Made by a program: the position numbers and the translations under genes. From Octopus vulgaris (Eukaryota), in contig OX597839.1 in the NCBI GenBank assembly GCA_951406725.2, positions 12,214,001 through 12,278,000 of the forward strand: a DNA stretch of 64,000 bases. Direction: 5' to 3'. Below are positions 3,091 through 58,035 of the stretch, one piece after another; position 1 is the stretch's first letter, and each line of letters starts with the position of its first letter. The notes beneath the pieces are model-generated. The model saw nothing but the letters and a program-made list of their open reading frames with translations, was not told the DNA's origin and ran no database searches.

Positions 3091-3287
3091 ATGTTTAGAT
3101 TCCTAACTACATTCAATCCACATTTTGCGATGCAGTTTAACCTAAAACATTTTGCGTATCGTATAGTCGTGATTCATATCCAGCCCTTCTGGGTATTAGC
3201 GCGCGTCTACGATGAGTCTATGATTTTACAAATAATTTACCATCATTTTTTCCCATTTTAATGCATATTTTTTTTAATAAAGGGAAG

Positions 3288-3853
3288 TAACTCTCAAACT
3301 TCACACCAATATGCGTGCTCATATGCGACGTAATATCACATCAGCAGCATTTCCTCACACCCTCCTTGCACTTGGCGATGAAAATGGTAATATTGCATAT
3401 ATATATATACCAGGGGATGAAAATGGTAATATTGCCATCGATTCCATTTGTACCATTGTTAAGACGCCTTCTGATCTCAGAGATGCAGTGTTCCCAGATC
3501 TACAAGCTAATTATCAGAATATGGATTGGATTGGCAAAAAGGCTATACTGGCCCCGAGGAATAAAACTGTTCACCATATTAATGATGAAATGCTAAAACT
3601 CATTCCTGGGGAAGTCTATGTATATCAGTCTATCGATACAACTCCTGACCCAGAGGACGTCATCAACTATCCAATAGAAGTACTCAATTCCTTTGAGCAC
3701 CCCGGACTACCACCACACTTTCTCAAACTTAAAGTTGGTGCCCTTATAATGCTCATCAGAAATTTGGTTCCCCCAAAACAATGCAATGGCACACGTTTGA
3801 TCGTTAAGTCCTTATCTCCCACCGTAAGCTTATATCAATATTTGCCTGAATAA
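3288..3853 (+). pseudogene. Helitron PIF1-like helicase fragment (LxLxxNMR through the 2B region)
   Basis: LKLHTNMRAH...AILAPRN...LNSFEHPGLPPHFLKLKVGALIMLIRNL...CNGTRL; truncated on both sides and enclosed by Helitron termini. Confidence 0.92.
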
Positions 3854-27609: not shown

Positions 27610-28110
27610 ACCTACCCCTTTCTTAAGCCGTTGTTCTCACGCGTTCAAAATAAATTTTCTTTCGTTCGGCTTAACAACCCTTAACGTTTGTATTACTGTT
27701 ATTCTACCTGTCCTGTCGTTTACTGTTTTTATTTGTATTTCTACTGTCTTGTATTGTTTTTACTGTCCTGTTTTTGTTACCCCCTCCTCAAAAAATCTCA
27801 AATTTTATTTAATTTGCTTTGCGGGAAGGACCGTTTCACCGGAGTTGTGTTTCGCCTTTACCTTCGAAACACGGAGTAGACGAAACAGAGGCGGTTGAAG
27901 AAGGGGAATTTTCTTTGTGTTGTATGTCTTGTACCCTGTTTTTTCGTTGTTTAAAAAAATGTCCGTTTCCATGGTTCTGTTTTTATGTTTTCGTTTCTCA
28001 TTGTGTTCGACGTTTTTTTGGTGTCCTGTACCCATATATGCATGTATATACACATATAGATGTAGGTACCTATATATATGTATGTATATATGCATATGCT
28101 TTATTTATTA
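27610..28110 (+). mobile_element. TA-flanked retroelement-like 3' end family carrying the permuted hammerhead
   Basis: Homologous to 41142-41522 (+), 41556-41932 (-), 50925-51110 (+) and about 4230-4405 (-). Confidence 0.7.
27825..27906 (+). ncRNA. Non-circularly permuted hammerhead-like motif
   Basis: GAAGG..GTTTC..GTGT-T-TCGCCT-tta-CCTTC-GAAA-CAC..GAAAC..AGGCGG-TTGAAGA. Confidence 0.65.
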
Positions 28111-40150: not shown

Positions 40151-40181
<31 letters not shown>

Positions 40182-40182
40182 A

Positions 40183-41125
40183 CTAGCAGCATAGCCCGGC
40201 GTTGCCCGGGTATGTAAGAGCCCCTAGTAGGCAACGACTAATCCCAATTTAATCCTTTCCCTCTAGGGAACGAAGGCGCATGTGTAGGTTGCAATGTCTT
40301 CTCTTCACTCGAATACTTCTGTGTATACAATGTTCCTAGCTGCCCCTTTGGGCGAAAACATGAAAACATCATTGCGCCTCCCAACGCGTGAACAGCCCAC
40401 GTAGAGTTGACCGTGGGCGAAGCACTGTTCGCCCAACTGTAACCCAGCGACTTGTAGCGTTTGGCCTTGGGATTTATTGATGGACATTGCGAAGCAGAGT
40501 TTAACAGGAAACTGAGAACGTCTGAAGTGGATTCGGAGGTCAGCGCCCGACGGTTGAAGGTGCATGCGTGGAATGAAGACGTCCTCTCCCTTCCCACAAC
40601 CGGTAAGTATTGTGGCCGTTATTAAATGTGGTGGCAAATGTTTCACAACCAGACGTGTGCCGTTGCACTGTTTAGGTGGAACCAAATTCCTGATGAGCAT
40701 AATGGGCGCACCGACTTTTAACTTCAGGATGTGTGGCGGCAGGCCTGGCGGTTCAAGTGAATTCAGGAATTCAACAGGATAATCGGCAAGCTCGGCGGGG
40801 TCTGCTGTCCTATCAATAGATTTGTAGACGTGGACATCACCAGGAATAGCTTCAAGTAGCTGGATATTGATGGAGTTGAGAGTTAAAAAGGTCGAGTTGC
40901 GTCCCCTAGACAGTATGTGGTTTGTGTTTCTGATTCTCGACCCCATGTCGAATATATCGATTTTTTTCAGAACTGGGGGAACTTTTCAAAATTTTCGCTC
41001 CGTTAGTTTTGAATTATGACATTGGGCTATGTGTGTGTCAAGTTTCATCAGAATCGGTTGAAAGCCGTGGTCAGGGTGAGGGTACAACCTGACAGACACA
41101 CAGGCAGACAAATTGCCGTTTATAT
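40183..41125 (-). mobile_element. Helitron deletion derivative carrying the PIF1 C-terminus
   Basis: A|CTAG at 40183, hairpin CCCGGCGTTGCCCGGG; 40877-41125 is nearly identical to 62007-62265. Confidence 0.9.
40305..40946 (-). pseudogene. Helitron PIF1 helicase C-terminal ORF (213 aa, chimeric N-terminus)
   Basis: LNSLEPPGLPPH..LKVGAPIMLIRNL..CNGTRL..RSQFPVKLCFAMSINKSQGQTL..CFAHGQLYVGCSRV; Walker A/B absent. Confidence 0.93.
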
Positions 41126-41231
41126 ATATATATATATATATTTTTGTACTGTCGTTACTGTCTCGTTTTTTTACCATTTTTTACCCCTCTGCGAAAAGAT
41201 CTCAGAATTTTAATTGATTTGCTTTTCGCAG

Positions 41232-41316
41232 GAAGGAAAGTTTCTTTTCGAAGATACGTCTCGCTTTTATCCTTCGAAACGTAGAGTAGATGAAACCTTA
41301 ACGACTGAAGAAGGGG
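41232..41316 (+). ncRNA. Non-circularly permuted hammerhead-like motif with an intact core
   Basis: GAAGGA..GTTTC..TACGT-C-TCGCT-ttta-TCCTTC-GAAA-CGTA..GAAAC..AACGA-CTGAAGA. Confidence 0.72.
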
Positions 41317-41521
41317 TTTTTTCGTTGTGTTAACTGTCCTGTACTCCATTTTTTGTTGTTTTTAAAAAAATGTCCTGTTCCTTTGGTTTGTGTCTATGTT
41401 TTCGTTTCTCTATGTGTTCGACGTCCCTTTGGTGTCCTGTACTCATATATGCGTGTATATGTACATGTAGAGGTAGGTACGTACATATATGTTTATATAT
41501 ATGCATATGTTTTATTTCTTT

Positions 41522-41555
<34 letters not shown>

Positions 41556-41756
41556 TAATAAATAAAATATATGCATACATACAAACATATATGTACGTAC
41601 CTACATCTACATGTATATATACATGCATATATAAATATATATACGTGAGTACAGGACACCACAACTAGACGTAGAACTCAACGAGAAACGAAAACGGAAA
41701 AACCATTTTTTTACAACAGAAAAACAGAGTACAGGACATACTACACAAGGAAAAAT

Positions 41757-41838
41757 CCCCTATCATCAGCTGTCACTGGTTCGACTCTAGCGTGTTTTGA
41801 AGGCAAGACAGGACACGACTCGCCAAACTAGTCCTTCC
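41757..41838 (-). ncRNA. Non-circularly permuted hammerhead-like motif (G12A)
   Basis: GAAGG-a-CTAGTTTG..CGTGT-C-CTGTC-ttg-CCTTC-AAAA-CACG..CGAACCAG-t-GACAG-CTGATGA. Confidence 0.68.
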
Positions 41839-42722
41839 TGCGAGAGAATTAAAATAAAATTACCTCGCAGAGGGGTAAAAACAAGCAAGAAAAAAATGTA
41901 ACACAAACAGGACGTACAAACGATACGAATAAAAATATATATATATATATGAATATATTTTCTTTTATATGTTTCAGCTCTGAGACTGTGGCCATGCTGG
42001 GACACAGTGTGCGTGTGTAATGTATATGTTTGTGTGTGCGTGCAGTGTATGTGTATATGTATGTACACACACACACACACATATACTCATACAGAGTTTT
42101 AAAAATCGATCGTATGGTATACAGCTGATAATTTGTCGGTAAAGTACGTTCGCTGACTCGGTGTTCGTTGGGTATTCGATTAATGAAAGACACGTACTGG
42201 GGTCGATCTAATTGACTGCCCCGCCTCCCCAGAAATAACTAAAAATATTCAATGCCACACTAGTTAACAACATCACTTAGATACCCCTTGGCCATTGTAA
42301 TACCGCTTAAAGTGAGAAAAATACCAACTTGAGTTTCTTAATAAGTATCGCTCACCGTGGGATGAAAGCTAAAAAAAAAACCTACGCCTATCTACACTTC
42401 AGTATTGCTTCTTAGGCGTTTTAAAAATCTTTATAGACTACACTACAAAAAACATTCCTACACTACTTAAAAACGTTTACTTCAGGATGCTCATAGAAAA
42501 AAAAAAACACAGAAGATTTTGTTAAACGCTTACAATGGAAGGCCCTACAGTTTGACGGAGCATTACCTCTAACAGCAACTGAACATTTCGACATTAACCA
42601 CGGAACTTTTCTCCACGTGTTAAAGACCTTATTCACTTCCCCGCCGATTTGCTGAACCTTATTTCCACGATGATGTTTAGCAAGTACACTTACTCTAACC
42701 TGTTTCAATCTAAATTGGCTAA

Positions 42723-57589: not shown

Positions 57590-58035
57590 AATAATAAATA
57601 AACGAAACCTCGGATATGCTTTACTCCACGTAGAAACAGCAGGAGTTATTCGGATGTTTTGCAAGCCCTTCTTAATCCATCAAAGTGATGGCAACTCTTC
57701 CATATCGTCATCAAATATTTCAAGTTCACAAGCGTTTCGCCCATTAGCCAAAAACGCTTCACTTGAATAGGGCAGCGAGGACTGCAAGAGTCTTCATCTA
57801 CGGAAAGGTTCCACTTGCGGTCTCTTTTCAGCCATAGTCACTTTGAGCTTGTTTCAGCTGCTGTGCTTATCTCCTTGAAGGCCTTACTTCAGTTGTTTCG
57901 GTTCCAGAACTATGTTTTGCAGAACTATCTCAGAAACTGCAAGAAAGTTGCAGTAGCCGACTTCAATAGGGAGCCACGACTACAAAAAGGAATGCAATTA
58001 TATATATTAAGTCCATTTGAAGAGGAATATTTCAA
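57590..58035 (-). mobile_element. HERO-clade (RLE) LINE 3' end
   Basis: LPIEVGYCNFLAVS...KEISTAAETSSK*LWLKRDRKW matches the HERO pattern PVEVGCRGF...AAE..S.WLW.KR...W. Confidence 0.75.
57708..57773 (-). ncRNA. Decayed permuted hammerhead-like motif in the HERO 3' UTR
   Basis: GCCC..TTCAAGT-g-AAGCGT-T-tttggctaat-GGGC-GAAA-CGCTT..ACTTGAA-atat-TTGATGA; stem I eroded. Confidence 0.55.

Follow-up and report, generated by a model that had tools for sequence, protein, structure and literature searches.

A 5'-truncated and decayed copy of an RLE-type LINE, probably of the HERO group, was identified at positions 57605-57970 on the minus strand of the 64,000-nt stretch of Octopus vulgaris DNA analysed here (the window). 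The copy contains the last ~60 codons of the open reading frame (ORF) and the 3' UTR, without poly(A). The ORF remnant (57787-57970, minus strand) represents the end of the restriction-like endonuclease domain and is disrupted by a frameshift and by a stop within the frame. At 57789-57787, where the register of the family alignment places the stop codon of the family, this copy is mutated. In tblastn searches the remnant matched the C-terminus of P0002 with 55-59% identity (E 7e-7), in line with the HERO-type assignment made in a preliminary description of this DNA, and P0078 with 46% identity over 26 aa (E 0.19). A Pfam search with a 108-aa remnant gave no match.

Copies of the same element are present in this genome (G000, 2.8 Gb), where the 40 scored out of 251 candidates show 72-77% identity to the element at 57605-57970. 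Sixty loci of this old family were fetched and 51 copies were aligned, five duplicates having been dropped and four loci being without a match. The window copy is 83% identical to the majority sequence of the 51 aligned copies, which average 81%. These copies have a common 3' end and no poly(A). Five old-family copies lie at G000:C18:76.87-76.95 Mb with a spacing of 16-22 kb and are likely carried in a segmental tandem array. The old family also shows 63-73% DNA identity to the metagenome loci L118 and L091, its UTR similarity to L091 is confined to the ribozyme-like motif described below, and its closest named proteins are from fish; from these sequence comparisons, horizontal transfer is possible.

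The ORF piece of one old-family copy matched P0001 and P0002 at 64%, and a search with P0002 returned 178 relatives in fish, molluscs and lancelets. RVT_1 was found in P0002, P0078 and L333, a CCHC knuckle and the RLE-type PD..E-L-T-V-P-W-E pattern were found in 48 of 50 aligned relatives, and R2 proteins are the best solved relatives of the HERO-like proteins. The relatives have a single ORF with RT, CCHC knuckle and C-terminal PD-(D/E)xK-type endonuclease, of which the window holds only the last ~60 codons. The Tetraodon protein AAN12398 is among the P0002 relatives and clusters with BAC82599; we take these two to be Zebulon/HEROTn. A tree of the C-terminal region was built from 70 loci with a midpoint root, nine loci lacking the region being left out. 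In this tree, which holds neither outgroups from other clades nor the window fragment, AAN12398/BAC82599 nest among motif-bearing loci with support of 100/99, and they are 42% identical to P0002 over the C-terminal region. HERO insertion is described as mostly non-specific (PMC4640811), and the 51 old-family copies have no common flank directly behind the 3' end. Membership of the window element in the HERO group is likely, because RT, the knuckle, the RLE pattern and R2 relatives were all found, AAN12398 is among the relatives and the remnant matches P0002.

The preliminary description had placed a permuted hammerhead layout directly behind this ORF remnant. The strings that it named were all found on the minus strand of the window, in the order given, at 57773-57708: GCCC (57773-57770), TTCAAGT (57767-57761), AAGCGT (57759-57754), GGGC-GAAA (57742-57735), ACGCTT (57735-57730) and ACTTGAA (57725-57719). 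The core string TTGATGA is present at 57714-57708, but it is a look-alike three nucleotides off; the true core is ATGACGA at 57711-57705. Two helices absent from that description were identified, P0 (57812-57799 with 57704-57691) and the hairpin P5 (57798-57774).

The full motif has the order P0 - P5 - II5' - Ia - III3' - UH - I5' - linker - II3' - GAAA - III5' - Ia' - I3' - CUGAnGA - P0'. In this copy every part of it lies on the minus strand. P0 is a helix of 14 bp in the family majority and covaries in relatives; its 5' strand (57799-57812) overlaps the last ORF codons and is followed by P5 (57774-57798), which abuts both P0 and stem II without a spacer. The 5' strand of stem II, starting from G10.1 (57769-57773), lies upstream of the cleavage block and not behind CUGAnGA. 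Next comes the 5' strand of helix Ia (57761-57767), the helix that bridges stems I and II in type-SGC hammerheads, and two of its pairs in the window copy differ from the family majority on both sides. Block S (57748-57759) comprises the 3' strand of stem III, U16.1-H17 and the decayed 5' strand of stem I, with a predicted cut after ~57753, whose position is read by analogy with known hammerheads. Block G (57730-57743) comprises the 3' strand of stem II, GAAA (57738-57735) and the 5' strand of stem III, and is followed by the 3' strand of helix Ia (57719-57725). In the family-majority alignment, the decayed 3' strand of stem I and the core from C3 to A9 (AUGACGA) occupy 57705-57715. The 3' strand of P0 (57691-57704), placed by the family register and a covariance model, directly follows A9.

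The window copy of the motif is likely dead, because C3 of the core has changed to A (AUGACGA) and stem I has been lost in register with the family majority; the decay of stem I had already been noted and is confirmed by the alignment. A hammerhead core with UH and stems in register is absent in this copy and present in the relatives and in the family majority. Folding of the 141-nt copy gave a z of -0.81 against shuffles, i.e. no better than shuffles, and nested folding is uninformative for a pseudoknotted, decayed RNA of this kind. A relaxed layout without stem I matched four times in the window, compared with 0-2 times (mean 0.2) in 40 shuffles. Searches with Rfam at the gathering threshold gave no match in the window or in five loci with an intact motif; at E <= 10, the 150 matches listed out of 508 were simple-repeat look-alikes and were rejected. 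A covariance model trained on 32 HERO loci from metagenomes, with no locus of this genome among them, ranked 57693-57807 first in the window (E 4.2e-6, a rough value) and gave E 0.75 at 41180-41323. The window copy alone is weak evidence, because its fold is no better than shuffles, and the motif is taken as real because of the family evidence.

The majority sequence of the old family passes the strict descriptor, as does only one of the 51 old copies. It has a stem I of 4 bp, CUGACGA, a GUA site, a stem II of 5 bp, a stem III of 6 bp, a helix Ia of 6 bp and a 14-bp P0 that starts right after A9. Stem I pairing and the core, which the preliminary description had proposed to look for in HERO 3' UTRs, are thus both present in the family majority. 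Its placement of the layout in the 3' UTR of a HERO-group LINE with an RLE is supported by the loci of relatives in metagenomes. The best 80 of 505 HERO-like contig stretches gave 79 loci, of which 60 were assessable, with at least 250 nt behind the stop. In 43 of the 60 assessable loci, the strict descriptor located the motif no more than 800 nt behind the stop; its matches numbered 54 in sense and none in antisense orientation in 311,369 nt, and a shuffle control gave 3 matches in 12,000. The covariance model recovered 10 of the 17 loci missed by the descriptor, raising the number of loci with the motif to 53 of 60; it missed L333 at E <= 0.05. Neither the descriptor nor the model found the motif in the remaining seven (L093, L112, L118, L136, L142, L161 and L165). 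In L112 and L118 the contig ends at the motif position or short of it, and the sequences of L136 and L161 may be too short to reach it, because sister loci carry the motif 600-700 nt out. Bearers of the motif are distributed across the entire 70-locus tree, and P0078 falls among them.

Pairing was compared with swapped partners or other null sets. Of 46 distinct cores, 42 form an upstream stem II of 4 bp or more (mean of 14.2 and maximum of 21 cores with swapped partners), whereas the canonical SGC stem II, which would join the sequence behind A9 to that ahead of GAAA, has 0 bp in 42 of 46 and at most 2 bp. Helix Ia has at least 6 bp in 37 of 46 cores (null 10, maximum 17), and G10.1-C11.1 is G-C in 42 of 46. 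P0 reaches at least 6 bp in 31 of 40 cores (null 5.9, maximum 12), all of these nulls ignoring relatedness, and P5 has 0-nt junctions in 28 of the 31 relatives with such a P0. P0 is short or bulged in the other nine cores, as also in the young family and the Naiad-like copies described below. A MAFFT alignment was made of 32 selected loci, 26 of the 31 with a long P0 and 6 others, with pairs taken from L102. In this alignment, whose rows were chosen among descriptor matches and thus had stems I and III of at least 4 bp by demand, 87.5% of cells are paired versus 60.4% when shuffled and 37-42% when slid. Six helices covary in the same selected 32 rows, stems I, II and III of the hammerhead among them, and in 35 of 38 pairs both partners vary. 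CUGAnGA, GAAA, U16.1-A15.1 and H17 (A, C or U) are kept across divergent HERO loci, in part because the descriptor demands them. In a hammerhead A9 is joined to 10.1 directly or by 1-2 nt; here P0 follows A9.

It could be argued that the motif is chance complementarity in a repeat-rich genome, as the window copy folds no better than shuffles and no Rfam family matches. The strand and position bias, the covariation and the recurrence in three unrelated repeat types speak against this reading, which is refuted by the covariation and retains next to no probability. The comparative sequence evidence indicates that the motif is a genuine hammerhead-type RNA that has been conserved and in which the A9-G10.1 link is opened. 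It is characteristic of the 3' UTRs of HERO elements and occurs in other retroelements as well.

The search was extended to viruses and prokaryotes. No HERO-like ORFs were found in viral contigs, and none of 31 viral loci with a narrow core pattern, a pattern too narrow to show absence, passed the descriptor. The same pattern in prokaryotes gave one locus passing the descriptor (L220) among the 80 listed. This locus, a 2.6-kb contig of a bacterial MAG (JBOFCM010000140.1), resembles HERO loci and was set aside as likely host contamination.

The same architecture occurs in an unrelated young repeat in the window at 41180-41323 (plus strand), with one stem I mismatch in this copy; the preliminary description had reported a common motif order in unrelated sequence here, and it was found again at 41185-41323 (plus strand). 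A relaxed scan of the sequence located a diverged inverted copy at 41745-41885 (minus strand), in which GAAA has become AAAA and the stems are different but paired, and a further copy lies at ~27780-27900 (plus strand). The repeat at 41.2 kb has a unit of ~890 nt, is inserted in (TA)n, forms partial tandems and is represented by 2265 candidates of 94-99% identity; 29 of 30 loci pass the strict descriptor. This non-coding repeat looks like a non-autonomous Penelope-like element or retrozyme. Its sequence covers 41150-41530 (plus), 41560-41920 (minus) and 27780-27900 (plus) in the window, and inverted pairs also occur among the loci L031-L060. Helitron-like fragments with a Pif1 2B domain are present at 40180-41130 (minus) and 3281-3850 (plus).

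A third host is suggested by the Naiads, Penelope-like elements (PLEs) for which Craig et al. 2021 (PMC8557442) report no canonical hammerhead and core halves ('HHR_half_core') that fit no descriptor. The published 3' ends of Naiad_Ovul, Naiad_Obim and Naiad_Esco (PMC8557442) show the HERO motif order by eye. A 17-nt piece of the published octopus Naiad consensus matches 365 places in G000. Of 12 such loci fetched (L321-L332), four pass the descriptor at the match, with a weak P0, and the HERO-built model finds all three Naiad-like loci given to it (L322, L324 and L330; E 3e-5 to 2e-4). No ORF was seen within 1.5 kb of the Naiad-like loci, so their Naiad identity rests on the published consensus. 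Two Naiad consensus 3' ends in the supplement of PMC8557442 show by eye the order C-S-G with a bridging helix, i.e. type CSG; by their place in the file, these are likely Naiad_Hpol and a spider Naiad. Two examples of type-CSG hammerheads were known to Eckert 2023 (PMC10085705).

Several known ribozyme systems are similar to the HERO motif in some respects. The type-SGC hammerhead HRIMA-1 (Eckert et al. 2023, PMC10085705) has the same block order S, G, C and equal core nucleotides, a short linker between stems I and II, and an extra helix bridging the other strands of these stems. In type SGC block C (I3'-CUGAnGA-II5') is uninterrupted, whereas in the HERO motif the 5' strand of stem II is upstream of block S, and P0 and P5 lie between A9 and G10.1. 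The HERO motif is not filed as type SGC, because block C is interrupted; by analogy, it likely works like type SGC. Type SGC was reported from metatranscriptomes only and from no genomes of known organisms (PMC10085705), whereas the HERO motif is found in animal retrotransposons, and type-SGC ribozymes with equal cyclic order and the Ia helix cleave in vitro. The hammerheads of Penelope-like and non-LTR retrozyme elements are also near the 3' end of a partially tandem-inserting retroelement (PMC6765202). These are canonical and circularly permuted, whereas the HERO host is a true RLE LINE and not a GIY-YIG element. The Naiad half cores (PMC8557442) have a HERO-like order, with a weaker P0, a PLE host and no structure given by the authors. 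The HDV-like ribozymes at the 5' ends of R2, L1Tc and RTE are likewise self-cleaving RNAs in LINEs and likely free the element RNA from a longer transcript (PMC6765202). They belong to another class and are present as a single 5' copy, whereas the HERO motif is behind the ORF and acts upstream only via tandem arrangement. In the PK hammerhead (Zhan et al. 2024, PMC11300833), the core has a pseudoknot-like long-range stem II as in the HERO motif. Its G10.1 still follows A9, with pistol-like connectivity and the A9-G10.1 link intact, whereas this link is opened in the HERO motif.

The copy ends bear on what the motif does. In the old family the genomic 3' end is 155 nt downstream of the predicted cut; of 29 ORF-selected loci, 21 extend to this end and none stops within 10 nt of the cut. 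A young HERO family with open 1.1-kaa frames and about 2100 candidates was also found in G000, with a unit of 3738 nt. Its loci L333-L352 contain many open frames and copies that are 99% identical, L334 with an inverted 5' copy. Of 20 near-full-length copies, 16 pass the descriptor at the 3' end and six also upstream. Ends were measured in 29 of 30 young loci, two of them tandem; the 27 non-tandem copies end 118-126 nt beyond the predicted cut, and none of the 30 copies ends at the cut itself. The preliminary description had suggested that cleavage could set the 3' end of the RNA for target-primed reverse transcription, and had proposed comparing the cleavage site with the genomic 3' boundary. 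The position of the motif in the 3' UTR, on the sense strand, is in keeping with this, but the two sites coincide in none of the 29 old and 30 young copies, and with ends 118-155 nt beyond the cut this role is very improbable. Its contrast between a 3' motif and the 5' ribozymes of other LINEs is weaker than it was put, because in partial tandems, as in six of the 20 copies, the motif also precedes the ORF of the following unit.

Each partial tandem has two intact motifs, and head-to-tail units are also present in L091, L093, L094, L096, L155 and others. The upstream tandem copies of the young family are truncated 121-1555 nt above their own cut. Among the 30 loci (of 40 matches) holding the 5' UTR, 23 pass the junction and 17 pass the cut, and of the 30 5' ends (two rows sharing one flank and two reaching the locus edge) one falls within 10 nt of the junction and none that close to the cut. 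As 5' ends cross both sites without pile-up, the template is inferred to run unbroken across the junction and the predicted cut. A unit-length linear RNA with occasional template jumps, which predicts a 5'-end pile-up, was rejected in the absence of one. An extension of the 3' end by 2-10 nt into the tandem junction was rejected as proof of internal priming, because a slightly longer linear template with microhomology priming gives an equal result.

We lean towards the explanation that the HERO 3'-end fold is a rearranged hammerhead core and that intact elements self-cleave, their tandem transcripts giving unit RNAs that become circles and are reverse transcribed by internal priming. P0 would be stacked on P5, and the two would join stem II and the core at A9/G10.1 in a four-way crossover of Holliday-like form, which would keep the A9-G12 / G10.1-C11.1 stack despite the opened backbone. 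Cleavage is predicted to occur after UH and to leave a 5'-OH and a 2',3'-cyclic phosphate. Cuts at two ribozymes in succession could release a monomer that is re-ligated to a circle, a continuous template, on which reverse transcription would start internally and could exceed one round, so that partial tandems would be regenerated. The circle is favoured because tandems are regenerated each round and because the two tandem copies of L343 share 12 variants, five of them absent from 15 other loci. Against it, the upstream copy in L333, L339 and L340 (three of six tandems) has a common shorter G-run than the downstream copy, a pattern more in keeping with descent from a tandem master, or with homopolymer error, than with one circle copied twice; five of the six tandems are otherwise uninformative on variant sharing between upstream and downstream copies. 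Processing of multimers and circles has been proposed for the Penelope-like and retrozyme hammerheads (PMC6765202), and an internal start of reverse transcription was shown for the Penelope element PAc (PMC11167929). Contigs of four RNA runs cover parts of the young element, and contigs cannot show RNA ends.

The main alternative, itself rather unlikely, is that an active hammerhead is slow or gated by protein, the template being an uncut linear multimer from a tandem locus and cleavage having a part in regulation or translation or freeing the RNA from host transcripts. This would account equally well for the smooth 5' ends and for two intact motifs per insertion, and the G-run difference between upstream and downstream copies is common to three of six tandems. 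PAc behaves alike in vitro (PMC11167929), which also weighs against the circle: its hammerhead is dispensable for insertion, unprocessed RNA is the main substrate, and no RNA-seq reads begin or end at the cut. As P0 overlaps the last codons in the window family and in relatives whose cuts are 24-50 nt past the stop, ribosomes could gate folding. An uncut multimer would, however, have to escape two cuts per template and would need a promoter upstream of the truncated copy, and over the generations its upstream copies could lose length but not gain it, whereas 121-1555 nt are present above the cut.

A fold that is real and non-catalytic, serving as a hammerhead-shaped binding site by which the RT or endonuclease positions internal initiation, is improbable. 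The distance to the genomic 3' end is fixed within each family, as such a site would have it, and no precedent for a hammerhead with an opened A9-G10.1 link was found in the literature covered. Eckert 2023 (PMC10085705) assumes the A9-G10.1 block to be uninterruptible, and some insertions into the hammerhead core lower activity (PMC3088659), both of which weigh against self-cleavage of the HERO motif. However, CUGAnGA, GAAA, U16.1-A15.1 and H17 are kept in divergent HERO loci and in an unrelated repeat family, and the distance to the 3' end differs between families.

Self-cleavage with circular templates remains the preferred account for HERO. For the wider proposition, that HERO LINEs and cephalopod Naiads share an undescribed, active hammerhead with a four-way junction opened at A9/G10.1 and that HERO elements replicate via self-cleaved circular RNA with internal priming, the chances appear about even. 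If true, this hammerhead topology would break the rule of three uninterruptible blocks by which permutations are enumerated. It would also place a hammerhead in an autonomous LINE clade, with a testable mechanism for the partial-tandem insertions of the HERO/Zebulon type. Such a topology would be invisible to Rfam and standard descriptors and yet present in thousands of copies in one animal genome. The layout offers a structure for the Naiad 'half cores', and, if the proposition holds, rearranged hammerheads would be widespread among animal genomes and would explain the 'missing' Naiad ribozymes. No link between hammerheads and HERO and no description of the layout was found in the literature covered, which lies outside subscription journals and Repbase reports.

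Two further features of these elements were recorded. In the window family (57812-57787) and in loci with the cut 24-50 nt past the stop, the end of the ORF, including its stop, coincides with the 5' strand of P0 and part of P5, and translation could gate folding of the motif. Behind the genomic 3' end, where the next unit starts, tandem junctions contain a cluster of short hairpins in which GGAAAGAC loops recur. This cluster, found in L094, L095, L099, L101, L143, L152, L166 and L333:1190-1330, is possibly a protein-binding or translation element.
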